A stretch of 52,975 bases of DNA from Bacilli bacterium (GTDB lineage Bacteria; Bacillota_I; Bacilli_A; RF39; UBA660), in contig JAVXDN010000001.1 in the NCBI GenBank assembly GCA_036658935.1, positions 1-52,975 on the forward strand. The letters are read 5' to 3'. The notes under the pieces were generated by a model. It had not been told where the DNA came from, made no database searches, and was given only the letters and a program-made list of their open reading frames with translations. Made by a program: the position numbers and the translations under genes. Position 1 is the stretch's first letter, and the number at the start of each line of letters is the position of its first letter. Positions 6,745 through 51,588 of this stretch are shown here, one piece after another.

Positions 6745-8661
6745 ATGATAAAAAATAAGAACAGTGTTATAAAGAATTCTGTGCCATATGTAGCTTTATT
6801 TGTAGTAATATTATTTACTATTATATTTTTTAATATGAATGGAAAGAAAGTTAATAATCTTACTTACAATGATTTTTCTAGTTATTTGACCGGACAAAAA
6901 GTAAGTGAATTAGTAGTAACTCCTAAAAGTGGTAGTGGAGTTTATAGTTTAACTGGTAAGTTGAAAACTTATAAGGATAATGAAACATTTGAGTTAATAG
7001 TTCCATTAACTGATTCAGTTATTACTGATATATTATCAACTGCTAAAGAACAAAATTTAGTTGTTAATGTAAAAGGAAATCCTGAAGGAAATACTTGGAT
7101 GATTATTATTATGAATCTACTTCCAATAGTTTTATTTGGTGGACTTGCAATTTTCTTAATAGGTAAAATGACTTCTTCTAATAAAGGATCATTTGATTTT
7201 GGTAAGAGTAAGGCTAAACTTAATGAAGAAGGAAATAAGACAACATTTAAAGATGTAGCTGGATTAGTTGAGGAAAAAGAGGAAGTTCAAGAACTTATAG
7301 ATTTTCTAAAGACTCCTAAGAAGTTTCAAAGATTAGGTGCTAGAATACCTAAAGGAGTTTTATTAGTTGGTCCTCCAGGAACTGGAAAGACTTTATTAGC
7401 TAGAGCAGTTGCGGGAGAAGCTAAAGTACCTTTTTACTTTATTAGTGGATCAGATTTCGTTGAATTATTTGTTGGAGTTGGAGCTAGCCGTGTAAGAGAT
7501 ATGTTTAAAGAAGCAAAACAAAATGCACCTTGCTTAATATTTATAGATGAAATAGATGCTGTTGGAAGACAAAGAGGAACAGGTGTTGGTGGAGGTCATG
7601 ATGAACGTGAACAGACACTTAACCAATTACTTACAGAAATGGATGGATTTGGAGCTAATGAAGGTATAATTATTATAGCTGCAACTAATAGACCAGATGT
7701 ACTCGATCCTGCATTACTTCGTCCAGGAAGATTTGATAGACAAGTAACTGTGGGACTTCCTGATGTTAACGAAAGAGAAGATATATTGAAAGTTCATGCT
7801 AGAAATAAAATATTTGGAACTGATATTAAGCTTAAAAGAATTGCTCAAAGAACACCGGGATTCAGTGGTGCAGATCTTGAAAATTTACTTAATGAAGCTG
7901 CTCTTTTAGCAGTAAGAAGAAATAAGGAATCTATTTCTATGGATGAAATTGATGAAGCAAATGATAGAGTTCTTATGGGACCTGCTAAAAAGAGTAGAAA
8001 AATCACAGAATTTGAGAAAAAAGTTGTTTGTTTTCATGAGGCTGGACACGCCGTTTTAGGTATTGAATTACCTAATGGAGAAGAAGTTCATAAGATTACT
8101 ATTATTCCAAGAGGTATGGCTGGAGGATATACTCAAACTTTACCTAAGGAAGAAAAAACTATGGTTTATACTAAAAATGAGTTATATCAACAAATAGTTT
8201 CATTACTTGGTGGTCGTGTTAGTGAAGAATTATTCTTAGATGAAATGAGTACAGGTGCTAGTAATGATTTCAAGAGAGCTACTAAGATAGCTAGAAGTAT
8301 GGTTACTGAATATGGTATGAGTGATTTAGGTCCTGTTCAATATGAAGAACCTAATGGTGAAGTATTCTTGGGTAGAGATTATACTAAGTCTAGAAATTAT
8401 TCTGATGCTATTGCTCTTGAAATAGATCAAGAAGTTAGAAAAATAATTGATATATGTTATAAACAAGCTAAAGAAATATTATCTAAAAATAAAGATTTGG
8501 TTTCTCTTTTAGCTGATACTTTAAATACTAAAGAAACTTTAACTAAAGAAGAAATTGAAAAGATAGTTGAAGGATATAGAAAAGGGATAAAAAAAGTAAA
8601 AGTTGAAAGTAGTAAAAAGACAACTGATAAGAATGTTAAAGAATTAAAGGAAGATAAATAA
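6745..8661 (+). CDS. ftsH: ATP-dependent zinc metalloprotease FtsH
   Basis: Two N-terminal TMs, Walker A GPPGTGKT, Walker B IIFIDEID, second region of homology, HEAGHA zinc site. Confidence 0.97.
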
Positions 8662-8677
8662 TATCTTTCCTTTTTTT
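8646..8677 (+). terminator. Candidate intrinsic terminator after ftsH
   Basis: Hairpin aaaGGAAGAT-aaataat-ATCT(t)TCCttt with one bulge, followed by a T7 run; overlaps the ftsH stop. Confidence 0.45.
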
Positions 8678-8712
8678 ATATCAATTACCTACTTTTTCTA
8701 ATTACTTTGTTA

Positions 8713-8741
8713 TTGTCTTAAAGGGTGTCTCGGTGTATAAT
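8713..8741 (+). promoter_or_regulatory. Candidate sigma-A promoter for the parA-parB-...-ychF array
   Basis: TTGTCT (8713-8718), 17-nt spacer, TATAAT (8736-8741), 38 nt upstream of the parA ATG. Confidence 0.5.
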
Positions 8742-8779
8742 ATTAATAGTACATTTTAAAGAATTGTGAGGTAAAGATT

Positions 8780-9607
8780 ATGGGTAAAGTAATATCATTG
8801 GTTAATCAAAAAGGTGGAGTAGGAAAAACAACAACAAGTATTAATTTATCTAGTTCTTTAGGGTATTTAGGAAAAAAAGTATTATTAATAGATTTAGATC
8901 CGCAAAGTAATAGTACTACTGGCCTTGGGGTTAATAAAGCTACTGTAAATAATAGTATATATGAAGTTATTACAGGAAATTGTGATGTAAAAGATGCTGT
9001 TATTAAAACTAAATTCAAAAATTTGAGTATTATTCCTGCTATGATTAATTTAGCGGGGGTTGATATAGAGTTAGTGCAAAGAGGTATAAAAAGTGAAGAG
9101 TTTAAGATTGGAGATCAACTTAAATTAGCTATTGATACTATTAAAGATGAATATGATTTTATTATTATAGATTGTCCTCCATCTTTAGGACTTTTGACAA
9201 CAAACGCTTTAGCAGCATCCAATAGTGTGTTAATACCAGTTCAGTGTGAGTATTTTGCATTAGAAGGAGTTACACAATTACTTAATACTATAATTCTTAC
9301 TCAAAATAAGATTAATCCATCTCTAGATATTGAAGGAGTTTTATTAACTATGTTAGATGGGAGAACATTGCTTGGGTTAGAAGTTGTAGAAGATGTTAGA
9401 AAATTTTTCAAAGAGAAAGTATTTAATACTATTATACCTAGATTGGTAAAATTAGTAGAAGCTCCATCTCATGGAGAACCAATACTTGAATATGATCCTG
9501 ACTGTAGAGGTGCACTAGCATACTTAAATTTAGCAAAGGAAGTGATTGATAGAAATGGAACAAACAAAGAGGAAAGCTCTAGGCAAAGGGTTGGAGCAAC
9601 TATTTAG
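8780..9607 (+). CDS. parA: Chromosome partitioning ATPase ParA/Soj
   Basis: Deviant Walker A NQKGGVGKTTT, IIIDCPPSLG motif; adjacent to parB. The 3' end overlaps parB by 53 nt. Confidence 0.9.
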   Translation: MGKVISLVNQKGGVGKTTTSINLSSSLGYLGKKVLLIDLDPQSNSTTGLGVNKATVNNSIYEVITGNCDVKDAVIKTKFKNLSIIPAMINLAGVDIELVQRGIKSEEFKIGDQLKLAIDTIKDEYDFIIIDCPPSLGLLTTNALAASNSVLIPVQCEYFALEGVTQLLNTIILTQNKINPSLDIEGVLLTMLDGRTLLGLEVVEDVRKFFKEKVFNTIIPRLVKLVEAPSHGEPILEYDPDCRGALAYLNLAKEVIDRNGTNKEESSRQRVGATI

Positions 9608-10442
9608 TAATGAAACTTTTAATCTAGATGAATTTGAAAGGAATATTGTTGAGTCTTCAAATAAAGAAGATGTTATTCAAGTGCTTTTATCAGAATTAAG
9701 AAATAATCCTTATCAACCTAGACAGGTTTTTGATGAAGATAAATTATCAGAACTTGCTGAGTCAATTAAAACTTACGGAGTAATTGAACCAATTATTATT
9801 AAGAAGAGTATTAAAGGATATGAAATAGTGGCTGGGGAAAGAAGAGTTTTAGCAAGCAAAAAAGCCGGACTTGATAAGATACCTGCTATTATAAGAGATT
9901 TTACAGATGATGAAATGATGGAAATAGCATTGCTTGAAAATATTCAAAGAGAAAATTTAAATATAATGGAAGAAGCAGATGCTTATAAAAATATTATTGA
10001 AAAGTTAGGTCTTACACAAGAGGAAATGGCGAAAAAAATAGGTAAAAGTAGAAGTTATGTTACTAATGCTTTAGGACTATTAAAATTACCAAGAAGTGTT
10101 AGGGCTTTAGTTTTAGAAGGTACAATATCTATGGGACATGCAAGAGTATTAAGTAAACTTGAAGATGAGGATAAAATAATTGAATTATCAAATTCTATTG
10201 TTAAAAATGCTACTAGTGTTAGAGATTTAGAAGAATTAGTTAATAATCCTTTGTATATTAGAAAGTCACCTAATAAAAAAGAAGTTAAAGATAATAAATA
10301 TGATTATGTAGAGACTATTATGAGAGAAAAAATCGGTACTCGTGTTAAGATTAATTCTAAAAATATTACAATACCTTATGATAGCGAAAAAGATTTAGAA
10401 AGAATATTAGAAATATTAAATATATCTATAAATATGGAGTGA
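9555..10442 (+). CDS. parB: Chromosome partitioning protein ParB/Spo0J
   Basis: RKALGKGLEQLF N-terminus, ParB box GERRVLASKKAG, HTH (QEEMAKKIGKSRSYVTNALGLLKL). The ATG at 9555 is preferred over the TTG at 9546. Confidence 0.9.
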   Translation: MEQTKRKALGKGLEQLFSNETFNLDEFERNIVESSNKEDVIQVLLSELRNNPYQPRQVFDEDKLSELAESIKTYGVIEPIIIKKSIKGYEIVAGERRVLASKKAGLDKIPAIIRDFTDDEMMEIALLENIQRENLNIMEEADAYKNIIEKLGLTQEEMAKKIGKSRSYVTNALGLLKLPRSVRALVLEGTISMGHARVLSKLEDEDKIIELSNSIVKNATSVRDLEELVNNPLYIRKSPNKKEVKDNKYDYVETIMREKIGTRVKINSKNITIPYDSEKDLERILEILNISINME

Positions 10443-10447
10443 TGTGT

Positions 10448-11254
10448 ATGATAGAGTTTATTAAGTCAAATGTAATTTATTATGGTTTATTTAGAGCTGT
10501 GTGCTATATTGCTCTAGGAGTACTTGTTTATTATTTAGCTAAGCTTTTATTATCTAAAGGTATGAGTATTAGTTTAAATAATAAGAAAGTTAATATTAAA
10601 AGGAAGAACACTGTTATTAAATTACTTATGAATATTTTGAAATATGCAATTATAGTTGTTGTGTTATTAGCTCTTCTTAGTATAATTGGAGTTAATGTAA
10701 CCGCTATTGTTGCTTCTCTAGGTATTGCAGGATTAGTTGTCGGTTTTGCTTTAAAAGGAACTATTGAAGATTTAGTAAGCGGAATCTTTATTATAATTGA
10801 TAGCCAATATGAAGTTGGAGATTTTATTGAGGTTGATGGATTTATTGGAGAAGTTATTGAGTTAGGTCTTAAAACTACTAAGATAAAAAGAGCTACTGGA
10901 GAAGTTAAAATAGTGTCTAATAGTCTAATAAAGAATTTAGTTAATTATTCAAAGCAAAATTCAGTTGCAATATGTGAAGTTGGTATAGCTTATGAAGAAG
11001 ATGTTGATAAAGCAATTAGTGTTTTGAATAAGCTTGTTACTAAAATAAAAAAGATTTCTCATGTTAAGGGTAGCGTAGAAGTTCTTGGAGTTCAAGATTT
11101 ATCTTCATCTTGTGTTATATTAAGACTTACAGCAGAAACTGATTCTATGGAGCAATATGGTGTTAGAAGAGAAATACTCAGATTGATTAAAAATGAATTT
11201 GATAAACAAAGTATAAAGATACCTTATCCTCAAGTAGAGGTGCATAATGGATAA
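10448..11254 (+). CDS. Mechanosensitive ion channel (MscS family)
   Basis: Three TMs then the MscS beta-domain (IEDLVSGIFIIIDSQYEVGDFIEVDGFIGEVIELGLKTTKIK). Possible starts are GTG 10439, ATG 10442 and ATG 10448; the last has the best GGAG spacing. Confidence 0.8.
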   Translation: MIEFIKSNVIYYGLFRAVCYIALGVLVYYLAKLLLSKGMSISLNNKKVNIKRKNTVIKLLMNILKYAIIVVVLLALLSIIGVNVTAIVASLGIAGLVVGFALKGTIEDLVSGIFIIIDSQYEVGDFIEVDGFIGEVIELGLKTTKIKRATGEVKIVSNSLIKNLVNYSKQNSVAICEVGIAYEEDVDKAISVLNKLVTKIKKISHVKGSVEVLGVQDLSSSCVILRLTAETDSMEQYGVRREILRLIKNEFDKQSIKIPYPQVEVHNG

Positions 11255-35131: not shown

Positions 35132-35159
35132 AAAAAGGCTTAATTAATTAGGCCTTTTT
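35132..35159. terminator. Bidirectional terminator between convergent genes
   Basis: AAAAAGGCTTAA-ttaa-TTAGGCCTTTTT hairpin between the stops at 35127 and 35140. Confidence 0.55.
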
Positions 35160-36084
35160 CACATTTATTACCATAACAATCTATTAATTCTTTATTTCTT
35201 AATATTTTTATTATTTCACAATTATTAGGACATTTATTACACTCTTTTCCTAATGTTTCAAATTCTATATCTTTTATATTTAAGCTATATTTTTTATTGT
35301 CTTTATTTTTAGCTAATATTGCACATCCGAGAGCACCCATTAAATGCCCATCTTCATCAACTATTATATGTTCTTTTAATTCACTTTCAAAGAATTTTAC
35401 GACGCCTTTATTTTTACTTACTCCCCCCTGGAAGACAATAGGTGCTATTATTTTTTTGTTTTTACATACATTGTTTATGTAGTTAAGTACTATACTTTTA
35501 CATAATCCAGCGATTATATCTTCTTTTTTATATCCCATACCAGCTTTATGAATTAAATCACTTTCAGCGAATACAGTGCATCTAGCGGCTATTTTTGTTG
35601 GATTTTTACTTTTTAAAGCTTCATATCCGAAGTCTTCAACTTTTATATCTAGTCTTTTGGCTTGAGAAGATAAGAAACTTCCGGTTCCAGCTGCACATAA
35701 TGTATTCATTGCATAGTCAGTTACTATTTTATTTTTAAGTAATATTATTTTGGAATCTTGTCCTCCTATTTCTAGTATAGTTCTAACATTAGGATGCCTA
35801 GAAAGTGTACCTACTGCATGAGCGGTTATTTCGTTTTTAATTATGTTTGCATCTAGTAGAGTTCCTATTAATTTTCTTGCACTACCAGTTGATCCAATTC
35901 CGCTTACTGTAATATTTTTGTTTTTAATTTGTTGATTTAGTTTTTCTATTAATTCCTTAAGTGCTTTTATTGGATTTCCTGATGTTGGAATATAAGAGGA
36001 TGCTATTATTTTATTTTCTTCATTTATTATAACTCCTTTAGTGGATATACTTCCTACGTCAACTCCTAAATAATATCTATTCAT
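35140..36084 (-). CDS. BcrAD/BadFG-type ATPase (2-hydroxyacyl-CoA dehydratase activase-like) with Cys-rich C-terminal extension
   Basis: ASKHA phosphate-1 motif YLGVDVGSISTKG. Cluster-bridging Cys contexts CAAGTGSF and ARCTVFAESD. Extra tail CNKCPNNCE...DCYGNKCEKG. Confidence 0.85.
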   Translation of the reverse strand: MNRYYLGVDVGSISTKGVIINEENKIIASSYIPTSGNPIKALKELIEKLNQQIKNKNITVSGIGSTGSARKLIGTLLDANIIKNEITAHAVGTLSRHPNVRTILEIGGQDSKIILLKNKIVTDYAMNTLCAAGTGSFLSSQAKRLDIKVEDFGYEALKSKNPTKIAARCTVFAESDLIHKAGMGYKKEDIIAGLCKSIVLNYINNVCKNKKIIAPIVFQGGVSKNKGVVKFFESELKEHIIVDEDGHLMGALGCAILAKNKDNKKYSLNIKDIEFETLGKECNKCPNNCEIIKILRNKELIDCYGNKCEKGLIN

Positions 36085-37144
36085 TTAATTTTTCCTTTCT
36101 CATTTTTAACATATCATAGAATGCTTCTAATCTTGTGTTAATTCCTATGTCTGAATTTTGTGATTCAAATGTTAGAAACATTATTGGAATATTATTATCT
36201 TCACAAATAGATTCAAGTACTGGTATTACGCCTATTTCTGGAGTACACCCAAAAGGTTTTATATGAATTATTCCATCATATTTATGTCTTTTTGCCCAAG
36301 TGACTCTATAAACATTAGCGGATGCATCTGCGCCCATATTATATTTAACATATTTTTTTATAAATTTCATGCGTAATTTATCAAATAAAAAAGTAAAAAC
36401 TAAGAGATATGATGCATTGGTAAATCTTTTTATAATAAATCCCATATTAATTAATGTTTCTTCTAAGTTAGAAGATGATGAAACCTCAATATTAGAATAT
36501 AATTCTCCAATTATACATATTTTTAAATTATTAGAATTTTGGATTTTTTTAAGTGATTTTATTTTGTTTATAACTTTAAAGTTGTTAACAATTAATTTTA
36601 GTATACTTTTATTTGATTTGAAATAAGTGTCACTTTTAGTACATATTTTATCTATTTTATCTTTTTCTATTATAAGCACTTTGTTTCGTCTTATATAATC
36701 TTCTAATTTATCACTAAAATAAGCATATATGAGTGTATAAATAATTACTTTTATAAATTTATAATATGTAAGGTGTGGATTAATATTTAAAAATATTTTA
36801 TATGCTCTAGATATAGAAAAGTTTCCTTCTTTCATTAAATTGTAAAAGTTAAATTTATATCCTAAATCTTTTAATATTTGCATTTGTACTTCACAATAAT
36901 AACCAAACTTACATCCTCCACCTATATGGATTATAGTATCTGCTTTATTTTCTAGACTCTCTATAAAATTACCTAAATTGTATTTAAAAGGTAAGCATAT
37001 TAAATTAGGTGAATATTTTTCACCTAGTGCTATTGTTTTTTTTGTTATTTTAGGTGGAACTAATATTTCTTTATTAGTTATATTTTTTAATAGATATTCT
37101 ATTTCTTTATAATAAGGACCAAAGTGAGCGAATGTTATTTTCAT
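36077..37144 (-). CDS. HgdB/D-component-like subunit (acyl-CoA dehydratase activase-related protein)
   Basis: 355 aa; Cys contexts NLICLPFK, GGGCKFGYYCE and KPFGCTPE typical of the 2-hydroxyglutaryl-CoA dehydratase D-component superfamily; 8-nt overlap with the ATPase gene. Confidence 0.6.
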   Translation of the reverse strand: MKITFAHFGPYYKEIEYLLKNITNKEILVPPKITKKTIALGEKYSPNLICLPFKYNLGNFIESLENKADTIIHIGGGCKFGYYCEVQMQILKDLGYKFNFYNLMKEGNFSISRAYKIFLNINPHLTYYKFIKVIIYTLIYAYFSDKLEDYIRRNKVLIIEKDKIDKICTKSDTYFKSNKSILKLIVNNFKVINKIKSLKKIQNSNNLKICIIGELYSNIEVSSSSNLEETLINMGFIIKRFTNASYLLVFTFLFDKLRMKFIKKYVKYNMGADASANVYRVTWAKRHKYDGIIHIKPFGCTPEIGVIPVLESICEDNNIPIMFLTFESQNSDIGINTRLEAFYDMLKMRKEKLNE

Positions 37145-38046
37145 TTATTTTCCTCGTTTTTTAATATATCACAGAAACTTTCTAATCTAGTTATTAATCC
37201 TGCGTTTTCTGATAGTTCATCAAATATTATATTTATTATAGGAATGTTTTTAACTTTTCTTAAAATCATTTCATTAACTAAAGAATCATTTCCACAAGGG
37301 AAAGCACTTATTAATATTATTCCATCTACTTTTTTAATATCATTAATTAATGAATTAACATAAATTTTATTATATGAAAAATACATAGTTGGCATTAATT
37401 TTTTATATAATTTTTTATTTTTAGTGTTATTAGTTGATAATATTACTTCCAAACCTTCATTATTTAGAAAGTCTATTAGGAATCCTCCAATAAATTCTTC
37501 TTTTAAATTATAACTGTGACCTACTAAAAGTATTTTTTTTCTAGTACTTGAAAAAGATAATGATCTTATAGCGTATTGTTTTTGTTTTTTTTCTCTAACA
37601 GTTCTTTTAGCATTTACGTATGCTTTTTTAGCTTTAGAATACGATATTCCAAGTGTTTGAGCTATATTCATAAATTCACTATATTCATTTTTATTATTTT
37701 TTATATCTAAATTATAATCTAATAATTTTTGTTTTTTAAATATATTTGATGTTATATCATATAACGCATTAAAGTTAGTGCAAACAACCCCAGTTTTTTC
37801 TATACTTCCAATTCTAGGAACTAATATATACTCACATTTATCTTTTAAATAGTCCACGTGTCCTATAAATATTTTTAAAGATAAACATGCTTCATCATTC
37901 ATAAGATGCGTTCCTCTAGCTATTATTTTTTTATTAGTTATGGGACTTAATATATAACTTATATCTAAATTATCAAAGAAAGAACACCAGAATTCTCCAT
38001 ATTCATAGTATAGTAAAGCTCGTGGAATACCTATAGTAGTTTTCAT
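37141..38046 (-). CDS. DUF2229-like subunit (CoA enzyme activase uncharacterised domain)
   Basis: N-terminus IGIPRALLYYEYGEFWCSFFDNL matches the DUF2229 signature as I recall it; 4-nt overlap with the next gene. Confidence 0.6.
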   Translation of the reverse strand: MKTTIGIPRALLYYEYGEFWCSFFDNLDISYILSPITNKKIIARGTHLMNDEACLSLKIFIGHVDYLKDKCEYILVPRIGSIEKTGVVCTNFNALYDITSNIFKKQKLLDYNLDIKNNKNEYSEFMNIAQTLGISYSKAKKAYVNAKRTVREKKQKQYAIRSLSFSSTRKKILLVGHSYNLKEEFIGGFLIDFLNNEGLEVILSTNNTKNKKLYKKLMPTMYFSYNKIYVNSLINDIKKVDGIILISAFPCGNDSLVNEMILRKVKNIPIINIIFDELSENAGLITRLESFCDILKNEENK

Positions 38047-40088: not shown

Positions 40089-40100
40089 TGAGTTTTTTTT
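40071..40100. terminator. Bidirectional terminator between convergent operons
   Basis: AAAAAGACTCAT-ttata-ATGAGTTTTTTTT; spans the 10-nt gap between the stops at 40088 and 40099. Confidence 0.55.
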
Positions 40101-41172
40101 AATTGAATTTTAATATTGAACTATTGTTTATAATTGATGTATTGTATAGAAATATGATATCTTTGTTATTAAAGTTTATTATTTCTTTTATTACACTCAT
40201 GCTTATATATCTTAAATCTATAAGAGTTATTTTACTATAGTTCTCTATTAATAATGGTGCTAAGGAACTGGTAAAAGAATCTCTAAATATAATTAATTCT
40301 CTATTATTATTTTGTTTATTATTGTTGAGTGTTACAAGTGAAGTAGGACCAGATAGAAATATATTATATGAATCTATTTTATTTAATTCATCTTTTTTAT
40401 AAATAGTATTTCCTTTGTTTTTTTCATAGTGTGTTACTTTTACGTTATCTACTATATCATTTGTTAAATATGTTAAAGTATCTTTTTCAATATTTAATGC
40501 TGCTTTACTATATAAAGCTCCTGTAAAATTATTATAGTTATTTTCTTTATAATTAAAAGTAAAGTTTTGATTTAATGCTTTTCCTAAAGTATTGAGTACT
40601 TCTTTTAAGTTTTCTTGTCTCCAATGGATATCTGTTTTATAATAATCTTTTAAGCTAAGAGAAGATGTAATATCTATATATTTTGTATTTATTTTCGATA
40701 ATTTATTAATCATTAAATCATAATCTAATTTTAAATGTGTATCGTTTAAGTAGTAGTTTTTATCAGGTATAATACTATAATATATATTATTATTTGTAGA
40801 GTTAATATCTATGAAGTTATTAACATTTTTAATATAGTTGTTTATAGCTTGTTCATTTAATTTATAATTCATTTCAAATATATAATTATCTTTTATAAAT
40901 ATATTATTGTTGTCAGTTGAGGCAAATAAATATTTATTTGTTAATGCTTTTATATTTCTAAAATTATCTCTTAATGGAAAATGATCTAATATATAGTTAT
41001 CTAGTGAGGTGAAGTATGATCCATCTATTACTTTATTAAATGTAGGAGATGGAAAAGATGCTAAATGTCTTCTTTCTGAAACTGATATATCTTTATCTTT
41101 TAATATTATGCTAAATATTAATCCCATGAATAGTACTATAGAGAATAATATTGTTGTTATTTTATTTTTCAT
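40099..41172 (-). CDS. DHHW / AlgJ-AlgX-like SGNH-fold O-acyltransferase partner protein
   Basis: N-terminal TM, SERRHLASFP segment, D-x-H-W motif (KTDIHWRQE); immediately downstream of an MBOAT gene. Confidence 0.6.
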   Translation of the reverse strand: MKNKITTILFSIVLFMGLIFSIILKDKDISVSERRHLASFPSPTFNKVIDGSYFTSLDNYILDHFPLRDNFRNIKALTNKYLFASTDNNNIFIKDNYIFEMNYKLNEQAINNYIKNVNNFIDINSTNNNIYYSIIPDKNYYLNDTHLKLDYDLMINKLSKINTKYIDITSSLSLKDYYKTDIHWRQENLKEVLNTLGKALNQNFTFNYKENNYNNFTGALYSKAALNIEKDTLTYLTNDIVDNVKVTHYEKNKGNTIYKKDELNKIDSYNIFLSGPTSLVTLNNNKQNNNRELIIFRDSFTSSLAPLLIENYSKITLIDLRYISMSVIKEIINFNNKDIIFLYNTSIINNSSILKFN

Positions 41173-41181
41173 TTTACCTCC

Positions 41182-42570
41182 TTAAAACCTAAAGTATAGA
41201 AATGGATTGAATGATGAATCAATTAAGAATGCTGTAACTACTAGTAATATAATAATTAATATGAATGGTTCTAATATCTTTATTATTTTGTTATCTTTAT
41301 ATTTATTGTATATATTTTTAATTAATGGAGTAGATGAGATAATTGAAATTAATAATATTACTATATAACTTCTAAAGAAGTATAATGTTTCATTTGTAAT
41401 TAATGGTAAATTATTAAATCCAAACATTGATTTTAAGTATGTAAATATTTCCAATATATTATTTGAATTAAATATTATAAAGCTTATTAATATTATAAAT
41501 AATGTATATATATGAGATATTACTTTATGTTTATCTAGATATTTTTTTAAGAATATTTTTTCTATTAATAAAATTACTGCAAAGAATAATCCCCATATAC
41601 AAAAGTTCCAACTAGCACCATGCCATAAGCCAGTTATTAACCATACTATTAGTATATTTCTTATATATTTAGGTTTTGAAACTCTACTTCCTCCTAGAGG
41701 AATATATATATAATCTTTTAACCAACTTGATAATGATATATGCCATCTTCTCCAAAAGTCTGTAATTGATGAAGAAATAAATGGATAATTAAAGTTTTCT
41801 AAAAATTTAAAACCAAACATTGAACCTAGTCCTATAGCCATGTCACTGTATCCTGAAAAATCAAAGTATATTTGTAGAGTGAATGCGACTGCATTTAACC
41901 AATAGGTAGTGATTGATGGATTAATTACATCAAATAATGTTGTACTAAGTACTCCTAAAGTATTTGCAATTAATACTTTTTTTGAAAGGCCAATAATAAA
42001 TCTTTTTATACCATATGAAAATTTATCAAATGAAGTTTCTCTATTATTTAATTCATTATGTATTGTTTCATATCTAACTATAGGTCCCGCTACTAATTGA
42101 GGAAAAAGACAAATATAAGTAGCGAATGATAATATATTTTTTTCTACATTTACTTTTCTTTTATAAACATCTATTACATATGATAATGCTTGAAAAGTAA
42201 AAAAACTAATTCCTAAAGGTAAGGCAATATGTAAAAGAGAAAAGTTTGTACTGAATATTGAATTTATATTAGTTATTAAAAAGTCTGTATATTTAAAATA
42301 GATAAATAACGATACATTAGATATTACACATAAAGTTAATAATATCTTTTTTAAATTTATTTTATTAGTTTTATCTATTAGTATGGCAAAAGTATAATTA
42401 ATTAAGCATGATAATATTAATAACCATAAATAATCTGCTTCTCCATAAAAATAGAATAAAAGACTAAATAAAAGAAGAACTATGTTTTTGTATTTCTTAG
42501 GAGCTAAAAAGTATACTAATAAAAGTATGCTTAAAAAGAAATATATAAATGTTATGCTTGAAAATACCAT
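41182..42570 (-). CDS. MBOAT family membrane O-acyltransferase (AlgI/DltB/PatA-like), copy 1
   Basis: FWRRWHISLSSWLKDYIYIPLGG and catalytic-His context GLWHGASW; 462 aa polytopic. Confidence 0.9.
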   Translation of the reverse strand: MVFSSITFIYFFLSILLLVYFLAPKKYKNIVLLLFSLLFYFYGEADYLWLLILSCLINYTFAILIDKTNKINLKKILLTLCVISNVSLFIYFKYTDFLITNINSIFSTNFSLLHIALPLGISFFTFQALSYVIDVYKRKVNVEKNILSFATYICLFPQLVAGPIVRYETIHNELNNRETSFDKFSYGIKRFIIGLSKKVLIANTLGVLSTTLFDVINPSITTYWLNAVAFTLQIYFDFSGYSDMAIGLGSMFGFKFLENFNYPFISSSITDFWRRWHISLSSWLKDYIYIPLGGSRVSKPKYIRNILIVWLITGLWHGASWNFCIWGLFFAVILLIEKIFLKKYLDKHKVISHIYTLFIILISFIIFNSNNILEIFTYLKSMFGFNNLPLITNETLYFFRSYIVILLISIISSTPLIKNIYNKYKDNKIIKILEPFILIIILLVVTAFLIDSSFNPFLYFRF

Positions 42571-42594
42571 AGTTCCTCCAGTTTTAGTAAATAA

Positions 42595-43059
42595 TTATTT
42601 TAAATCTTTAAAATTCTTTTCTATTGTTTCTCTATTTTCATTAACCATTATTAAAAGAATTAAGTTTCCTTTTGATAATACTCTAACGTCTTCTTTTGGT
42701 ACTTCTACACATATCCATTTTCTTGGATTCACTTTTTCTTGTATTTCTTTTTTAGCTTTTTCTATATCTGCATTATCATTCATACGTATTAATACTACAG
42801 AATGTGGAATTGATCCTATCATTGGTTCTGATGCTATCGCTTCTTTATAGTCTAGGGATTCTACTCCTAAATATGAAGATAGATTTTCTTTAGTTACATC
42901 TGCATTCATAAGTTTTGGTAGATTGTCTTCTTTAATTCCAGAATACATTTTAGACATAATGTCTTTTAAGTCTCCTTCGATATTTTTCTCTCCTTGGTTA
43001 CATCCAGTAAGTAGTAAAGCTAGTAAAGCACTTAGGACAATTATTGATATTTTTTTCAT
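42595..43059 (-). CDS. Lipoprotein (DUF4358-like)
   Basis: Lipobox LLLTGC at residues 15-20; domain of about 130 aa resembling the DUF4358 proteins I recall as common next to MBOAT/DHHW pairs in Clostridia. Confidence 0.5.
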   Translation of the reverse strand: MKKISIIVLSALLALLLTGCNQGEKNIEGDLKDIMSKMYSGIKEDNLPKLMNADVTKENLSSYLGVESLDYKEAIASEPMIGSIPHSVVLIRMNDNADIEKAKKEIQEKVNPRKWICVEVPKEDVRVLSKGNLILLIMVNENRETIEKNFKDLK

Positions 43060-43071
43060 GTTACCTCCTTA

Positions 43072-43494
43072 TTAGTTACATTTTGAAAAAATTTTTAGTT
43101 CTTTGTCTTTTAAGACAAGTAGTGTATCTTTGTCTAATTTATTTTTATATACTCTATGTCCTTTTAAAGGTTTATCTTTTATTGTAAAAAGATAGTTTCC
43201 TTTATTTTGTTTTAATGAAATATTATTAGTATCAATAAAACAATTATCTTTATAATGAATTATGTCATTTGTTCTTTTTAAGGTCGCTACAGGAGTGGAA
43301 TCATCATTATAAATTTGTTTTGGGATAAATAAAGTTATACAAAAACTTATTAGAACAACAAAAACCCCTAGTGGAATAAAAGATAAAAACGGGCTTATTT
43401 TTTTATGATTTAAAATGTTATTAAGCATTTTATCTTTTGATTCTTTGTCTGGAAGAATTGTATTTAGTGCATTTTTTATATTTTTATTTTGCAT
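43072..43494 (-). CDS. Single-pass membrane protein, candidate anti-sigma factor
   Basis: Overlaps the sigma gene 3' end. It has a cytoplasmic N-terminus of about 40 aa, one TM and an exodomain of about 80 aa. No ZAS HxxxCxxC motif. The start is ambiguous (43503/43500/43494). Confidence 0.4.
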   Translation of the reverse strand: MQNKNIKNALNTILPDKESKDKMLNNILNHKKISPFLSFIPLGVFVVLISFCITLFIPKQIYNDDSTPVATLKRTNDIIHYKDNCFIDTNNISLKQNKGNYLFTIKDKPLKGHRVYKNKLDKDTLLVLKDKELKIFSKCN

Positions 43495-43975
43495 ATACAT
43501 CATCCTTTTGTAAAATATTTTTAAGAAGTTCTCGTCCTCTTCTTAAATATGATCTAACTGTTGATGCGTTTATATTTAATTTTGTTGCAATTTCATCACT
43601 TGTATAACCTTCATAATAGTACATATAAATTATTATTTTATATTTTTTAGGAAGGGATAACAATATATTTAATGTTTCATCTGTATGATCATTAATTGGT
43701 AGAATTTCATTATCTATATTTTTGTTTTTTCTATACCAAGTTTTTAAAGAATTTTTACAATGATTTGATGCACTAAGAACTAGCCATGCCTCTAAGTGTT
43801 CTTCGTTTTCGTATATTTTATTAGCTCGTATAAATTTTTCAAAAACAGTTGAGACTGCATCTTCTGTATCATCTTTGTTTTTCATATATAAATAGCAAAT
43901 CCTATATATTTTATCAACATATTTATTATAAACTTCAACAATCTCTTTGTTCGATCTAAACAAAGAGTTGGACAT
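43484..43975 (-). CDS. ECF-type RNA polymerase sigma-70 family factor
   Basis: 163 aa; region 2 (DDTEDAVSTVFEKFIR) and region 4 HTH (YTSDEIATKLNINASTVRSYLRRGRELL). Confidence 0.8.
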   Translation of the reverse strand: MSNSLFRSNKEIVEVYNKYVDKIYRICYLYMKNKDDTEDAVSTVFEKFIRANKIYENEEHLEAWLVLSASNHCKNSLKTWYRKNKNIDNEILPINDHTDETLNILLSLPKKYKIIIYMYYYEGYTSDEIATKLNINASTVRSYLRRGRELLKNILQKDDVYAK

Positions 43976-44344: not shown

Positions 44345-46696
44345 ATGAAAACTAAGATACAAAGAGATTTATTTGGATTAAGTAATGAGGAAGTATTAAA
44401 AAGAGTTAATGAAGGAAAAATAAATATTGATACTTCTATTAAAACTAAAACTAATAAACAAATTATTAGAGAAAATATATTTACTTTATTTAATGTACTT
44501 AATTTTATTTTTGCTATACTTTTGATAGTAGTTGGGTCTTTTAAAGATTTGTTTTTTATGTGGTTAATTGTAGTTAATAGTGTTATTGGTATAGTTCAAG
44601 AGATTAGATCAAAGAATGTTATTGATAAGTTATCTTTACTTGCTTTAAAAAAAGTAAATGTTATTAGAAATGGTAAAGAGATAAGTATAGGTATTAATGA
44701 TATAGTTATAGATGATATTATGGTTCTTAGATCTGGTAATCAAATTGCAGCGGATGCGATTGTTATTAAAAATGAATGTGAAGTTAATGAATCTTTGCTT
44801 ACAGGTGAGGCAGATTCAGTTACTAAAAGTATTGGGGAAACTTTATTTTCTGGTAGTTATTTATCTAGTGGTGAAGTAATGGCTAAAGTAATTCATGTAG
44901 GTGAGGATAATTATGTAGCTCAAATTAGTAAGGATGCTAAAAAGATTAAAAGAAGTGAGTCTCAAATTATGAAGGCAATTAATAGAATAGTTGCTATTGT
45001 TTCTGTTATTATTATTCCTTTAGGTATTATGTTTTTTATAAGACAATTTAATTTAGATGGTTTTACTTTTAGTGATGCTGTAGTTCATACGGTAGCTGCT
45101 TTAATTGTTATGGTTCCTCAAGGTCTTGTTTTACTTACTAGTGTTGTTCTTGCTATTAGTGTTATAAGATTAGCTAAGCATAAGGTTTTAGTACAAGATT
45201 TATATAGTATTGAATCGTTAGCTCGTACTGATATAATTTGTCTTGATAAAACTGGAACTATAACTGAGGGAAGTATGATAGCGGATGATGTTATAGGGAT
45301 GGGTAAATATAATTATAATGATGCTTTAAATCTTCTCGGAAGTTATGCATCTTCTATAAATGATAGTAATCCTACTATTAATGCTATTAGGGAAATTGCT
45401 TCTAATAAAGAGTTTAGTGATATAAAAGAAATGTTTTCATTTTCTTCTGATAAAAAGTATTCTGCTATTGCTCTTAAAAAGGGTGGATATGTACTTGGAG
45501 CTCCGGATTTTATAGGGAATGAAACTAAAAAAGAACAAACTGAAATTAATGAATATTCTAAAGATTATAGAGTTTTAGGTTTATATAAGACTGAAAAAGA
45601 AATTAAAAAGAATTGTTTACCTGATGATTTATCTTTAATATGTTTAGTTTTACTTAAAGATAAGATTAGATATTCAGCTAAAAAAGTTCTTGATTATTTT
45701 AAGAACGAGGGTGTTGGTGTTAAGATTATTTCTGGAGATCATGTTAGTACTGTTGTAAATATAGCTAGAGTTTTAGAGATTAATGGATATGAAAAAGCTA
45801 TTGATTTATCAAGTGTTAAAACAGATGAAGAGCTTGAAAAAGCAGCTATAGAATATACAATATTTGGTAGAGTTACTCCTCTTCAAAAGAAAAAATTAGT
45901 TATTGCTTTAAAAAATGCTGGTCATACAGTAGCGATGACTGGAGATGGAGTTAATGATGTTATGGCTTTAAAAGAGGCTGATTGTGGTATAGCGATGGCT
46001 GCTGGATCTGATGCAGCGCGTAATGTGAGTGAGCTTGTACTACTTGATAATGATTTTGATTCTATGCCTAAAGTTGTAGATGAAGGAAGACGTAGTATTA
46101 ATAATATAGAACGTTCTGCAAGTTTATTTCTAAGTAAAACAATTTATGCTACATTATTAATAATGTTCTTCTTATTTGTTACTCTTCCGTATCCTTTTAA
46201 ACCCATTCAACTTACTTTAGTTGATATGGTAGTTATTGGAATACCTTCATTTATATTAGCTTTAGAGAAAAATACAAATAGAGTTAAAGGGAAATTTTCT
46301 AAAAACATTTTATATAAATCTCTACCTACAGCCTTGATGGTATTTTTCAATATTGTGATATTTAGTATATTGCAAAAGTTTAATGTATTTGATCAGAACA
46401 CTATTTCAACATTAGCGATATTCTCTACAGCGTTTATTGGATTTGAATTACTTTATACTATTAGTGAGCCTTTTAATAATTTAAGAACTGTATTATTCTT
46501 TTCTATGATAATATTATTTTCTTTACAGTTTATTTTCCTACATGATTTTTATTCAATCGCTAAGCTAAGTTTTGCTTCTGGTAGTGTAGCGGTAGTTATG
46601 ATGATAGTTGATAATTATTTATATAAATATGTGATTAAAGCAGTTAAATTTGTAATAGATCATATAAATTTTAAAAAAGAAAGAGAAGTAGTGTAA
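44345..46696 (+). CDS. P-type ATPase (HAD-IC, P2/P3-like architecture) with non-canonical transport-site residues
   Basis: Cation_ATPase_N-like start, TGEA actuator motif, DKTGTIT phosphorylation site and TGDGVNDVMALKEADCGIAM hinge. TM4 reads VPQGL instead of PEGL. The ATG at 44345 is preferred over the GTG at 44333. Confidence 0.9.
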   Translation: MKTKIQRDLFGLSNEEVLKRVNEGKINIDTSIKTKTNKQIIRENIFTLFNVLNFIFAILLIVVGSFKDLFFMWLIVVNSVIGIVQEIRSKNVIDKLSLLALKKVNVIRNGKEISIGINDIVIDDIMVLRSGNQIAADAIVIKNECEVNESLLTGEADSVTKSIGETLFSGSYLSSGEVMAKVIHVGEDNYVAQISKDAKKIKRSESQIMKAINRIVAIVSVIIIPLGIMFFIRQFNLDGFTFSDAVVHTVAALIVMVPQGLVLLTSVVLAISVIRLAKHKVLVQDLYSIESLARTDIICLDKTGTITEGSMIADDVIGMGKYNYNDALNLLGSYASSINDSNPTINAIREIASNKEFSDIKEMFSFSSDKKYSAIALKKGGYVLGAPDFIGNETKKEQTEINEYSKDYRVLGLYKTEKEIKKNCLPDDLSLICLVLLKDKIRYSAKKVLDYFKNEGVGVKIISGDHVSTVVNIARVLEINGYEKAIDLSSVKTDEELEKAAIEYTIFGRVTPLQKKKLVIALKNAGHTVAMTGDGVNDVMALKEADCGIAMAAGSDAARNVSELVLLDNDFDSMPKVVDEGRRSINNIERSASLFLSKTIYATLLIMFFLFVTLPYPFKPIQLTLVDMVVIGIPSFILALEKNTNRVKGKFSKNILYKSLPTALMVFFNIVIFSILQKFNVFDQNTISTLAIFSTAFIGFELLYTISEPFNNLRTVLFFSMIILFSLQFIFLHDFYSIAKLSFASGSVAVVMMIVDNYLYKYVIKAVKFVIDHINFKKEREVV

Positions 46697-48210
46697 TGAT
46701 TAAGTGTATATGTGATTTATTAGATAAGAATGTTTTATCAAATGGTGAAAAAATAGCTTTTAAGGAGATAAATAGAAGTATTACTTTTAATGATTTTCAA
46801 ATGAGAAGTTACTCTATTTCTACTTTTTTGTGTAAGTGGGAAAGAGATTCTATTGTTATTTTCATAGATAAAGGGATTGATGCATTGTGTTCTATGATTG
46901 GAGCGGTTGGTAGTAATAATTATTATACTGTAATGGATGTTAATACACCGAAAAATAGAATAATTGATATTATTTCTCAACTTGAACCTAAAGTTATTCT
47001 AACTACAAAGAAATATGAAAGTATTTTAAAAGATTTTCAAATAGAAAATTATATTTGTTTAGAAGATATTAATGATAATGTAGATAAAAAGTTATTATTA
47101 AATAGAAGAAATAATTTAATTGATACTGATAGTATGTATGTGTTATTTACATCAGGGTCTACTGGTTCTCCTAAGGGTGTAGTAGTATCACATAAAGCAT
47201 TACTCAGCTATATAGAGTGGTTTATAGAAGAATTTAAAATAGATAATAACACTGTTTTTGGTAGTCAAACTCCACTTTATTTTAGTATGTCTGTGTCTGA
47301 TGTTTTTTCTACTATTGTACTTGGCGCTACTATGTGTTTGATTCCTAAGATGTATTTCTCTTTTCCTATTAAATTAATAGAATATTTAAATAATGAAAAA
47401 GTTAATACTATATATTGGGTACCTTCTGCTTTAAGTATTATTTATAATTTTAAAGCTTTAGATCAGTTGAAAATGAATTATATTAATAAGATATTATTTG
47501 CAGGTGAAGTAATGCCTATGAAAGTACTTAATTATTTTAGAAGTCAGTTACCTTCTGTTAAATATTTTAATTTATTTGGTCCTACAGAAACAACTGATAT
47601 ATGTACATTTTATACTGTAGATAAAAAGTTTGAAGATTATGATGTTCTTCCTATTGGAAAACACTGTAATAATGTTGATGTTATAATTTTAAAAGATGAT
47701 AATACTGAAGCTTTAGGTGAAGAATCTGGAGAGTTATGTGTTAGAGGTTCTTTTCTAGCGAGTGGTTATTATAAAAATACTCAAAAAACTAGTGAAGTTT
47801 TTATACAAAATCCTTTAAATAACTATTATCCTGAAGTTATATATAAAACGGGGGATATAGTTAAATATAATTCAGAAGGTGAACTTATTTATTTATCTCG
47901 TAAGGATTTTCAAATAAAACATATGGGATATAGAATAGAACTTGGAGAAATTGAGGCAAAAGCCGGAAGTATTGATGGTATTAGTAGTGTAGCGTGTATA
48001 TATGATAATTTAAATGATGAAATTATATTATATTTTGTATCAACAGTTATTGAAAAAAATGATGTATTATTAAGTCTTGTATCATTATTACCAAAATATA
48101 TGATACCTAGTAAAGTTATAAGAATAGAAAGTATGCCTTATAATTCTAATGGTAAAATAAATAGAAGTGTTTTAAAAGAAAAAGGAGAGAATAAAGTATG
48201 CAAAAATTAA
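46696..48210 (+). CDS. DltA-like carrier-protein ligase (ANL adenylating enzyme)
   Basis: 504 aa; core motifs A3 LFTSGSTGSPKGV, A5 NLFGPTE, A7 YKTGD, A8 DFQIKHMGYRIELGEIE, A10 NGKINR. The start ATG overlaps the ATPase TAA (TAATG). Confidence 0.85.
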   Translation: MIKCICDLLDKNVLSNGEKIAFKEINRSITFNDFQMRSYSISTFLCKWERDSIVIFIDKGIDALCSMIGAVGSNNYYTVMDVNTPKNRIIDIISQLEPKVILTTKKYESILKDFQIENYICLEDINDNVDKKLLLNRRNNLIDTDSMYVLFTSGSTGSPKGVVVSHKALLSYIEWFIEEFKIDNNTVFGSQTPLYFSMSVSDVFSTIVLGATMCLIPKMYFSFPIKLIEYLNNEKVNTIYWVPSALSIIYNFKALDQLKMNYINKILFAGEVMPMKVLNYFRSQLPSVKYFNLFGPTETTDICTFYTVDKKFEDYDVLPIGKHCNNVDVIILKDDNTEALGEESGELCVRGSFLASGYYKNTQKTSEVFIQNPLNNYYPEVIYKTGDIVKYNSEGELIYLSRKDFQIKHMGYRIELGEIEAKAGSIDGISSVACIYDNLNDEIILYFVSTVIEKNDVLLSLVSLLPKYMIPSKVIRIESMPYNSNGKINRSVLKEKGENKVCKN

Positions 48211-49952: not shown

Positions 49953-49970
49953 AAAAGGAGTATGCGTATA

Positions 49971-51128
49971 ATGAAGAAAATTAAGGAACCAATAATAATA
50001 GTAATAATAATTGTTATAGTTGTATCTTCTCTTTTATTAATATCTAGGATATTCATTCCTAAGTGGATTAATAAGAATGAGGGAAGTATTACTTATATTA
50101 TGAGAGGACTTTATTCAGAAAAAAAGAATTCAATGGATGTTATGTTTATGGGTAATAGTCAGATTTATAGTGGAGTTAATCCTATGGAATTATGGAATGA
50201 TTATGGAGTTAGTTCTTATGTGTATGCTTCTCCTGGACAAAGAAGTTCAACTACTTATTATATGTTGAAAGAGGCTTTAGAGTATCAACATCCTAAAGTT
50301 ATAGTAATGAATGTAGAAAATTTATTTTATAAGACTACAGGAGCTAAAACAGCAGCTAGGAAAGTTTTTGATAATATGAGATGGGATAAAGTAAAGGTTG
50401 AGGCAATAATGGATAAGTCTTATCAAAATACCCCAGGTGATGTTATAAGTTATATGTTTCCACTGTTATGGTATCATTTTAGGTATAAGGAATTAAAGTT
50501 AGAAGATTTTAATTTATCTTTAGCTAAAATTCATCATCCTTATAAAGGATATAGTTTACATTCAGAGATTAATCCTAAAGTTAAAGATTTGGATTATATG
50601 GAAGTTACTGATGATAAAGCTGAGTTTAATCCTAAAGGACAAGAGTATTTAGAAAAAATAATTGATATTTGTAATAAAGAAAATATTAAAATAGTTTTAG
50701 TTCAAGTTCCAGCTGGAGATTTTTGGAATTATCCTATGCATAAGACTATGAGTGAATATGCAAAACAAAAGAATTTAACTTTTATTGATATGAATTTAAT
50801 GTTAGATGAATTAAAATTTGATTGGAATACTGATACATATGATAAGGGTACACATTTAAATATATATGGCTCTGACAAAGTTACTTCATTTTTAGGAGAA
50901 TATCTTACAAAAAATTATGCATTAGTTAATCATAAATTTGATAAGAATTATAGTGATTGGAATACTCAATATAAAGATTATCTAAAAGGTAGAGAAGAAG
51001 ATATAAATAGAACAAATAAGGGTATTATTAAATCAAGTAGTAATAGTTTTTATAATTTCAATGAAAGAGGAAAAAATATTCATGAAAAACATAGAAGGAA
51101 TAAAGTACAGTATAGAGAAAAGAAATAA
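49971..51128 (+). CDS. Membrane-anchored SGNH/DltD-like acyltransferase-esterase
   Basis: N-terminal TM, block I-like FMGNSQIYSG, block V-like DKGTHLNIYG. It sits in the position of dltD. The ATG at 49971 has better RBS spacing than the one at 49962. Confidence 0.55.
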   Translation: MKKIKEPIIIVIIIVIVVSSLLLISRIFIPKWINKNEGSITYIMRGLYSEKKNSMDVMFMGNSQIYSGVNPMELWNDYGVSSYVYASPGQRSSTTYYMLKEALEYQHPKVIVMNVENLFYKTTGAKTAARKVFDNMRWDKVKVEAIMDKSYQNTPGDVISYMFPLLWYHFRYKELKLEDFNLSLAKIHHPYKGYSLHSEINPKVKDLDYMEVTDDKAEFNPKGQEYLEKIIDICNKENIKIVLVQVPAGDFWNYPMHKTMSEYAKQKNLTFIDMNLMLDELKFDWNTDTYDKGTHLNIYGSDKVTSFLGEYLTKNYALVNHKFDKNYSDWNTQYKDYLKGREEDINRTNKGIIKSSSNSFYNFNERGKNIHEKHRRNKVQYREKK

Positions 51129-51588
51129 TGAAACTGCTCATCTTCAAGGTATAGAAATATTAGATAAACTTTTAAGAAATGAAAATATTTGTGATTATAC
51201 TATTGGTTATACTAATAATTTAAAACCTTTTATTGATAATAATAAATATATTAGTGTTTCTCATACAGAGGAATATGTTGTTTGTGCTGTATCGGATAAG
51301 AATATAGGGATAGATATTATAAAAATAAGGGAAAAAGATGATAAAGTAATGAAATATTTTTTTTCTAAGGATGAAAGAAATTATGTTAATAGTTCTGAAG
51401 ACAGTGGTAAAGCTTTTTCTTATGTTTGGACTTTAAAAGAGGCTTTTATAAAATTAAATGGGGATAAGTTAAAAGATATAAACAATTATAATGTAATTAT
51501 AGATAATAAAATAAATATAGAAAATGCAAGTTATTATTTTATTGAAGATATTAAGGATTATGTTATATGTGTAATCAAAAGTAATTAA
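51082..51588 (+). CDS. Sfp-type 4'-phosphopantetheinyl transferase (short)
   Basis: Motifs GIDIIKI and WTLKEAFIKLNG (W-x-x-KE-A-x-x-K), SVSHTEEYVVCAV; overlaps the upstream gene by 47 nt. Confidence 0.8.
   Translation: MKNIEGIKYSIEKRNNETAHLQGIEILDKLLRNENICDYTIGYTNNLKPFIDNNKYISVSHTEEYVVCAVSDKNIGIDIIKIREKDDKVMKYFFSKDERNYVNSSEDSGKAFSYVWTLKEAFIKLNGDKLKDINNYNVIIDNKINIENASYYFIEDIKDYVICVIKSN

Follow-up and report, generated by a model that had tools for sequence, protein, structure and literature searches.

What does a P-type ATPase that is encoded directly ahead of a Dlt-like gene cassette carry across the membrane, and to which family of pumps does it belong? The locus in question lies on a stretch of 52,975 nucleotides of contig JAVXDN010000001.1 from a Bacilli bacterium, analysed as a whole and called the window here. 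Its ATPase gene, at 44345-46696, reads PQGL where pumps of the CtpE type are described as carrying PEGL in the fourth transmembrane helix (TM4). A first-pass annotation, made from the letters alone, had taken the protein for an uncharacterised P-type ATPase whose substrate may not be Ca2+ or Mg2+ and might be a lipid or polymer. Part of this stands, as the protein is neither a P2 Ca2+ pump nor a P3B Mg2+ pump by the NCBIfam models; it belongs, however, to a known family, CtpE/P6 (TCDB family 23), the least understood of the P-type ATPase families. In our view, the gene probably codes for a working cation pump of the CtpE type whose carboxylate has been relocated and which was recruited locally into a Dlt-like envelope operon.

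Family assignment of the window ATPase

The open reading frame of the ATPase is intact on the forward strand. Its ATG at 44345 is preceded, about 9 nucleotides upstream, by a ribosome-binding site, GAGAGGTG, and since an alternative GTG at 44333 falls within this site, the likely product is a protein of 783 amino acids (aa). As had been noted from the sequence, its catalytic apparatus (TGEA, DKTGT, TGDGVND) is complete and its TM4 motif VPQGL lies 43 residues upstream of the phosphorylated aspartate, counted from Pro258 to Asp301. A Pfam search returned the generic E1-E2_ATPase and HAD domains only and found no Cation_ATPase_N or Cation_ATPase_C domain. An AF2 model of the protein (pLDDT 84) has ten TM helices, at residues 37-63, 66-97, 207-235, 242-278, 571-611, 620-640, 651-678, 684-707, 712-731 and 743-782, the fourth being interrupted at residues 257-258 as in canonical pumps.

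The assignment to CtpE/P6 is based on full-length similarity. CtpE of Mycobacterium tuberculosis (P0392; 797 aa, with 3104 member sequences) and P0455, named CtpE of M. marinum by its sources, align with the window ATPase over 760 colinear residues at 36% identity and 58% similarity, scoring 444-456 bits; in a search of PDB sequences, solved P2 and P3 pumps score at most about 190 bits at about 20% identity. A Foldseek comparison of the model with the PDB likewise returned P2/P3 pumps at about 20% identity (E about 1e-40, TM-score about 0.7) and no closer structure, a solved P6/CtpE structure not being found. Among the NCBIfam models, the generic P-type model TIGR01494 is the sole one above its cut-off, and none of those for P1A, P1B, P2A-D, P3A, P3B and P5 reaches it. 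The best-scoring subfamily model, P3A H+-ATPase TIGR01647, attains 266.7 bits against a cut-off of 615.5; the P2A models TIGR01116 and TIGR01522, for Ca2+-ATPases of the SERCA, LMCA1 and PMR1 kinds, attain 198 against 703 and 209 against 798, and the P3B Mg2+-ATPase (MgtA) models TIGR01524 and NF011702 score 169.7 against 610.75 and 154.7 against 975. At the positions of the P2A Ca2+ ligands (SERCA Asn768, Glu771 and Asp800) the protein has Thr599, Ala602 and Ile631; the TM6 aspartate of P3A pumps, Asp684 in AHA2, which these pumps combine with a TM5 Arg, presumably shares the SERCA Asp800 position and would thus also correspond to Ile631.

CtpE of M. smegmatis is a protein of 791 aa with ten TM helices and VPEGL in TM4, placed in family 23 of Chan et al. 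2010 (Gupta et al. 2017, PMC5615198). The pump was reported to take up Ca2+ and to be required for an intact cell surface, its loss affecting surface integrity and polymyxin sensitivity, and orthologs were listed in Clostridium, Streptococcus and other Firmicutes (PMC5615198). The family has since been renamed 'P6 ATPases', described as having PEGL in TM4 and, where Ca2+ pumps have their TM6 Asp, an Ile, and the inward Ca2+ transport reported for CtpE remains unexplained (Palmgren 2023, PMC10654040). The window ATPase, with PQGL, does not match the published PEGL signature, and neither do 50 of 149 diverse family representatives, about one third, which also have no acid in TM4; the definition is thus too narrow, and its mismatch does not exclude membership. 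The protein is indeed shorter than typical P2 pumps, as the first-pass annotation had remarked, but this is uninformative, about 780-800 aa being normal for the CtpE family: given the family assignment, both this length and Ile631 are hallmarks and not anomalies. The gene should be annotated as a CtpE-type pump.

A scan of species-representative genome contigs with the window ATPase yielded one distant locus at 22% identity and no close relative. Among the database proteins, P0391 (1313 aa, from a 4.4-Mb genome) consists of a CtpE, 100% identical, fused to a beta-lactamase-family domain (PF00144), probably as an artefact of gene calling or of a frameshift in a single Mycobacterium assembly.

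Residues of the ion site

HMMER alignments with PDB sequences place PQGL on the PEGL of the H,K-ATPase and LVDMVVIGIPS on its FIELCTDIFPS, GIPS being residues 632-635 of the window ATPase. Ile631 thereby aligns with SERCA Asp800, Na,K-ATPase Asp808 and H,K-ATPase Asp824, in agreement with the isoleucine previously proposed for this position, and Val630 aligns with Thr799. The accompanying claim that TM6 lacks Asn or Asp did not hold, as Asp627 occupies the position of SERCA Asn796, Na,K-ATPase Asp804 and H,K-ATPase Glu820. In TM5, LSKTIYA aligns with LTKNIPE of the H,K-ATPase, which puts Lys598 at Lys791. The membrane-site residues of the window ATPase are Gln259, Lys598, Thr599, Gln622 and Asp627.

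In the closest set, 119 database proteins from Clostridia of about 780 aa and 48-57% identity to the window ATPase, position 259 is Glu in 118, Asp in one and Gln in none, and position 627 is Ser in 100, Asn in 13, Ala in 4, Gly in 2 and never Asp. Position 630, a valine in the window ATPase, is mostly Thr, and Lys598 is kept in all 119. The Glu-to-Gln replacement in TM4 is therefore real and, at one in 120, unusual among the nearest relatives. Since the loss of the TM4 carboxylate comes with the gain of Asp627 in TM6, the ion site is rearranged and not emptied.

PQGL itself is not rare. A degenerate DNA pattern encoding M[VI]PQGL[VI]LLT matched at least 120 loci in metagenome contigs; in 114 of the 120 listed, the motif lies 43 residues ahead of DKTG in a P-type ATPase, and the other six are truncated. 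In the 83 PQGL proteins of these loci whose position 627 is readable, Asp stands there 36 times, Ser 23, Asn 16 and Gly 8 times (for instance RHLTIIDTLAIGVPS and IQLTLIDAFTVGIPS), whereas PEGL relatives have Asp there in 0 of 117. The TM5 Lys-Thr pair is retained in the metagenomic proteins. PQGL, often with a TM6 Asp, is thus widespread in metagenomes.

A sequencing error as the source of the glutamine was considered and rejected: three site positions differ (259, 627 and 630), each of the changes at 627 and 630 would probably take at least two nucleotide exchanges, and the Gln/Asp pair is found again in other sequences.

For a broader view, an exhaustive HMMER search of 50%-identity cluster representatives gave 8,658 proteins at E<1e-30, of which the best 150 were analysed. 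Among these best 150 of the 8,658, the variable residue of PxGL is Glu in 95, Ser in 23, Ala in 10, Gln in 7, Asp in 5 and Lys in 4, others occurring singly; position 627 is Ser in 79, Gly in 23, Asn in 16, Glu in 13 and Asp in 9; and the Lys598 position is Lys in 149. The two acids covary: where TM4 is non-acidic, 21 of 50 representatives have an acid at 627, vs one of 99 where TM4 is acidic (149 representatives; Fisher 6e-11, phylogeny ignored), and 29 of the 149 have a carboxylate at neither 259 nor 627. On a neighbour-joining (NJ) tree, at least 17 changes of state are counted for TM4 and at least 5 for TM6, and further Gln-plus-Asp clades appear in the metagenome set. As judged from these alignments, the pattern in the family is that of a single carboxylate, borne by either TM4 or TM6, opposite the invariant Lys of TM5, next to a substantial class that has neither, and the site chemistry of P6 pumps is far more diverse than the literature states.

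Some members depart further. P0195, P0252, P0260 and P0214 carry a TM4 lysine (PKGL or PKGI); in P0195 and P0252 the lysine goes together with Asp at 627 and with Glu in place of Ile631 (IQITVIDLIIEGYPS), and P0214 has Ser at 627 and Glu at 631. In other P6 members PAGL or PSGL is joined by Glu or Asp at 627.

Where does the window ATPase stand among these variants? Its identity to the metagenomic PQGL proteins is 36-46% only, and the NJ tree places it, on a longer branch than its sisters, within a clade formed by P0002-P0014 and P0028, in which position 627 is Ser throughout and TM4 has PEGL except for PDGL in P0028. With the three site columns removed, placement in this PEGL/PDGL clade is recovered in 100 of 100 bootstraps; a position as sister to P0002-P0005 is recovered in 62 of 100. 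Because the protein is nested in this clade, the Glu-to-Gln and Ser-to-Asp exchanges arose independently in the window lineage, repeating what has happened many times elsewhere in the family. In the literature on P6/FUPA pumps (Gupta 2017, Palmgren 2023, Novoa-Aponte 2012), a description of the Gln/Asp site variant was not found. The window gene is thus a member of a known, barely studied family with an apparently undescribed site variant.

The Dlt-like cassette and its surroundings

With mnmE, mnmG, rsmG, parA and parB, the window is a piece of chromosome from near the replication origin. The stop codon of the ATPase gene overlaps the start of the DltA-like gene (TAATG), and the Dlt-like genes follow in the order A-C-B-X, with a dedicated Sfp-type 4'-phosphopantetheinyl transferase (PPTase) and with short intergenic gaps or overlapping genes throughout (Table 1). 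Upstream, 369 bp separate the ATPase operon from a divergent gene for an extracytoplasmic function (ECF)-type sigma factor, a candidate regulator of this operon. A terminator scan found no terminator-like site between 43900 and 52100, lending weak support to a single transcription unit; promoter-like sites occur at chance level (65 vs 64 expected), and no convincing ECF-type promoter was found by eye.

None of the Dlt-like genes is a canonical one: all fall short of the NCBIfam cut-offs for DltA, DltB and DltC. The DltA-like adenylase scores 322 bits with the adenylation domain of a non-ribosomal peptide synthetase (LgrA module 2) vs 158-192 bits with solved DltA, and the amino acid that it activates may not be D-alanine. 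Pfam and PDB searches with the 388-aa product of the fourth gene gave no DltD match in Pfam, no match in the PDB and a weak GDSL hint only.

Is the linkage of pump and cassette conserved? The sister ATPases P0002, P0004 and P0005 all stand in a murT-gatD-ATPase-cofD arrangement and P0007 comes after an RNase Y gene; no dlt genes were found beside these four, the nearest relatives examined. Near the 120 listed PQGL loci, a DltA-like match is present at a single one (L031), where it is weak and divergently oriented. The four-gene cassette recurs on three metagenomic Clostridia-like contigs (L130 5125-9508, L131 1919-6298 and L132 8001-12447), with 40-57% identity for all four proteins and a fourth protein of about 350 aa, and at these three a P6 ATPase and an Sfp-type PPTase are absent. 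Since relatives of the pump lack the cassette and homologous cassettes lack the pump, the linkage is of a local kind. Its use as an argument in the first-pass annotation fails by the standard that this annotation had itself set, a lipid or polymer substrate is left without support, and the dlt linkage is no sign of a new wall-polymer transport system. In L130 the cassette is embedded among genes for TagF-type glycerophosphotransferase and glycosyltransferases, and its target is suggested to be a teichoic-acid-like polymer.

The recurring neighbours of the PEGL sisters point to a wider association of P6 pumps with cell-wall biosynthesis genes, MurT/GatD being responsible for lipid II amidation. 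The murT-gatD-ATPase order of the PEGL sisters is seen in L001 (7830-12349), L127 (446-4963) and L129 (440-4929); a convergent cofD-family gene follows in L001, L127 and L128, and the L129 contig ends before that point. In our search of the literature on P-type ATPases and D-alanylation, no published link between a P6 pump and dlt genes was found. In L131 the cassette is followed, about 3 kb downstream and in the same orientation, by another kind of P-type ATPase (8551-11139), a P2-type protein of 862 aa with Cation_ATPase_N/C domains and 29% identity to the window pump. A cation pump near this cassette is thus seen in two independent cases (window and L131), which may be coincidence.

Table 1. 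Genes and site residues of the window discussed in the text
Feature	Position	Strand	Basis
CtpE-type (P6 / TCDB family 23) P-type ATPase, 10 predicted TM helices	44345..46696	+	ORF, motifs, CtpE homology, AF2 model
TGEA, A-domain dephosphorylation motif, residues 153-156	44801..44812	+	motif search
VPQGL, TM4 motif, residues 257-261; Gln259 = CAA 45119-45121, replaces family Glu	45113..45127	+	motif, alignment
DKTGT, residues 301-305, phosphorylated Asp301	45245..45259	+	motif
TGDGVND, P-domain hinge/Mg2+ motif, residues 532-538	45938..45958	+	motif
TM5 Lys598; gastric H,K-ATPase Lys791 position (SERCA Ser767)	46136..46138	+	HMMER alignment
TM6 Asp627; SERCA Asn796 / Na,K Asp804 / H,K Glu820 position	46223..46225	+	HMMER alignment
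TM6 Val630-Ile631; Ile631 at SERCA Asp800 position, Val630 replaces family Thr	46232..46237	+	alignment; PMC10654040
DltA-like amino-acid adenylation enzyme	46696..48210	+	domain searches; below NCBIfam DltA cut-offs
DltC-like carrier protein, 74 aa	48198..48422	+	PP-binding domain E 1e-4; below DltC cut-off
DltB-like MBOAT, 504 aa	48438..49952	+	TIGR04091 165 bits vs cut-off 375
388-aa single-pass protein, fourth cassette gene, candidate DltD analogue	49962..51128	+	39-46% identity to fourth gene in L130-L132
Sfp-type 4'-phosphopantetheinyl transferase	51061..51588	+	ACPS domain E 3.5e-14
ECF-type sigma factor, divergent from ATPase operon	43484..43975	-	Sigma70_r2/r4 + ECF models
Small single-TM protein, candidate anti-sigma factor	43072..43503	-	
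DUF4358 lipoprotein	42595..43059	-	
MBOAT of second O-acyltransferase module	41182..42570	-	
DHHW protein	40099..41172	-	

Opposite the ATPase operon, the reverse strand carries a second O-acyltransferase module (40099-43975), made up of the five reverse-strand genes of Table 1, the ECF sigma factor gene among them. Beyond it, the segment 38176-40088 encodes a 414-aa protein with a weak PapA_C (acyltransferase/condensation-like) hint, then a zinc-ribbon plus DUF6320 membrane protein. At 35140-38046, also on the reverse strand, a BcrAD_BadFG-type activase ATPase adjoins two DUF2229/HGD-D-like proteins, a gene set that resembles a 2-hydroxyacyl-CoA-dehydratase-like activase system.

Mechanism, alternatives and known systems

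How might such a pump work? We envisage an ATP-driven pump of ten helices that moves cations and has a single membrane carboxylate and the invariant Lys of TM5. Here the carboxylate is relocated, the TM4 Glu having become Gln259 and the TM6 Ser having become Asp627, with Lys598 retained. Asp627, one helix turn before the hallmark Ile631, would replace Glu259 as the sole carboxylate and pair with Lys598. Since every catalytic motif is preserved, the usual E1/E2 phospho-enzyme cycle may be expected, transporting a cation or protons. The ions would presumably bind where TM4 is unwound, through its backbone and the side chain of Gln259, and also to Asp627, Lys598, Thr599 and Gln622. The rearrangement would probably retune affinity, selectivity or proton counter-transport and not abolish transport; that the correlated swap recurs argues for compensation or retuning and not for decay. 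With its gene placed at the head of the Dlt-like operon and beside an ECF sigma factor, the ATPase would probably be co-expressed with wall-polymer aminoacylation, within an envelope response. Such aminoacylation alters cation binding by the wall, and the role of the pump may be to adjust cation supply as wall charge changes. Membership of the family, the site residues and their positions, the covariation, the independent origin and the want of conserved synteny are direct results, while cation transport, the ion moved and a functional tie to the Dlt-like genes are what we infer for this protein.

Several points weigh against this picture. The 29 representatives with neither acid indicate that a membrane carboxylate is not strictly required, which weakens the logic of compensation, and the independent events behind the covariation are modest in number, about 5-8, with the Fisher test blind to phylogeny. 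The one P6 member studied experimentally, CtpE of M. smegmatis, is of the PEGL type (PMC5615198), and its Ca2+ is the single precedent for an ion moved by the family. Placed one turn away in TM6, an Asp may be a poor geometric substitute for the TM4 Glu. In SERCA, the mutation E309Q abolishes Ca2+ occlusion (PDB entry 5zmw is among the structure matches of the model). Finally, the window ATPase is the second most deviant of the 120 close relatives at columns conserved at >=90%, with 16 deviations vs a median of 4.5, which could reflect relaxed constraint instead of adaptation.

The last point is also what lends some credit to a decaying or regulatory paralog, a duplicate, evolving fast, that no longer transports ions and survives as an ATPase/phosphatase or pseudo-pump. 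To the deviations may be added the longer branch and the non-conservative changes at the otherwise invariant Asn68, Gly143, Ser548 and Pro642. However, the frame is intact over its full length, every catalytic motif and 207 of the 223 conserved columns (93%) are retained, the gene is translationally coupled to those downstream, and the changes in the site are a correlated pair found in many other lineages, all of which makes decay unlikely. More serious, if still rather doubtful, is the proposition that the protein is a Ca2+ uptake pump like CtpE of M. smegmatis and that the exchanges of Glu for Gln and Ser for Asp are near-neutral. Homology to CtpE is full-length, the single carboxylate and the lysine are retained, and the link of CtpE to surface integrity and polymyxin sensitivity (PMC5615198) would fit an envelope-stress or Dlt-like neighbourhood. 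Against it, identity is 36% only, CtpE has Ala at 627 and Glu in TM4, the site differs at 259, 627 and 630, and a net-neutral Lys/carboxylate site would be an unusual Ca2+ site; moreover, the diversity of site chemistries in the family (Glu, Ser, Ala, Gln, Lys and others) opposes one common substrate.

A non-cation substrate tied to the Dlt-like pathway, be it a lipid, a lipid-linked intermediate or a polymer for wall aminoacylation, we regard as very improbable. The overlap of the ATPase stop with the DltA-like start and the loss of the TM4 Glu would be in line with it, and the invariant TM5 Lys with polar TM1/TM2 Asn is loosely like P4 flippases. But the cassettes of L130-L132 do without a P6 ATPase, the four nearest ATPase relatives and, apart from the weak match in L031, the 120 PQGL loci do without the cassette, the Gln/Asp variant recurs in unrelated genomic contexts, and the protein is a small ten-TM pump without accessory subunit or extra domain. 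In its specific form of a P4-flippase-like protein or polymer exporter, this idea was rejected for want of conserved synteny and of an accessory domain.

A cation pump with a relocated carboxylate, as we favour, leads to a broader and more tentative thought, which may well prove wrong: CtpE/P6 would be not a set of uniform Ca2+ pumps but perhaps a radiation of single-site pumps built on the invariant TM5 Lys, whose counter-charge toggles between TM4 Glu259, TM6 Asp/Glu627 and neither, each state specifying a different ion, stoichiometry or direction. The window ATPase would then be an independently evolved TM6-carboxylate form, with Lys598-Asp627 mimicking Lys791-Glu820 of the H,K-ATPase. If so, it forms with its murT-gatD-linked PEGL sisters (55-57% identity) a natural matched pair for addressing the substrate of P6 pumps and the question of import by CtpE. 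The family-wide toggle of the TM4 and TM6 carboxylates is a more interesting result than the window gene itself, and the tie between loss of the TM4 acid and gain of a TM6 acid beside an invariant lysine provides a concrete, testable hypothesis on the ion site.

How does the locus compare with known systems? With canonical DltABCD it shares an adenylase, a small carrier protein, an MBOAT and a fourth, membrane-anchored protein; it differs in scores under the DltA, DltB and DltC cut-offs, in the order A-C-B-X and in having its own Sfp-type PPTase. P2A pumps of the SERCA and LMCA1 type resemble the window ATPase in overall fold and in the PxGL-DKTGT spacing of 43 residues, but the latter is without their N- and C-terminal cation-ATPase domains and has the Ca2+ ligands replaced. 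With the alpha subunit of gastric H,K-ATPase (P2C), Lys598 and Asp627 align exactly at Lys791 (TM5) and Glu820 (TM6), two positions treated as stoichiometry determinants in the K791S/E820D mutants of the PDB (7efn, 7et1). This pump, however, shares about 20% identity, keeps TM4 Glu343 and TM6 Asp824, needs a beta subunit and has about 1030 aa, so that the resemblance is one of position and not of membership. CtpE of M. smegmatis and M. tuberculosis (Rv0908; TCDB 3.A.3.23, 'FUPA23') is homologous from end to end, similar in size (797 aa vs 783 in the window), equipped with ten TM helices and likewise without Cation_ATPase_N/C domains. TM5 reads LFLSKTIY in the window ATPase and LFLTKTVY in CtpE, with the invariant Lys in common, and TM6 reads VIGIPSF and TIGIPAF, with Ile at the SERCA Asp800 position in both. 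The two part in TM4, where MVPQGLVLLTS stands against MVPEGLVLMTS, at position 630 (Val vs Thr) and at position 627, which is Asp in the window ATPase, Ala in CtpE and Ser in most Clostridia, as well as in their surroundings, a Dlt-like operon here and, for ctpE, an operon with an amylo-α-1,6-glucosidase (Gupta et al., PMC5615198).

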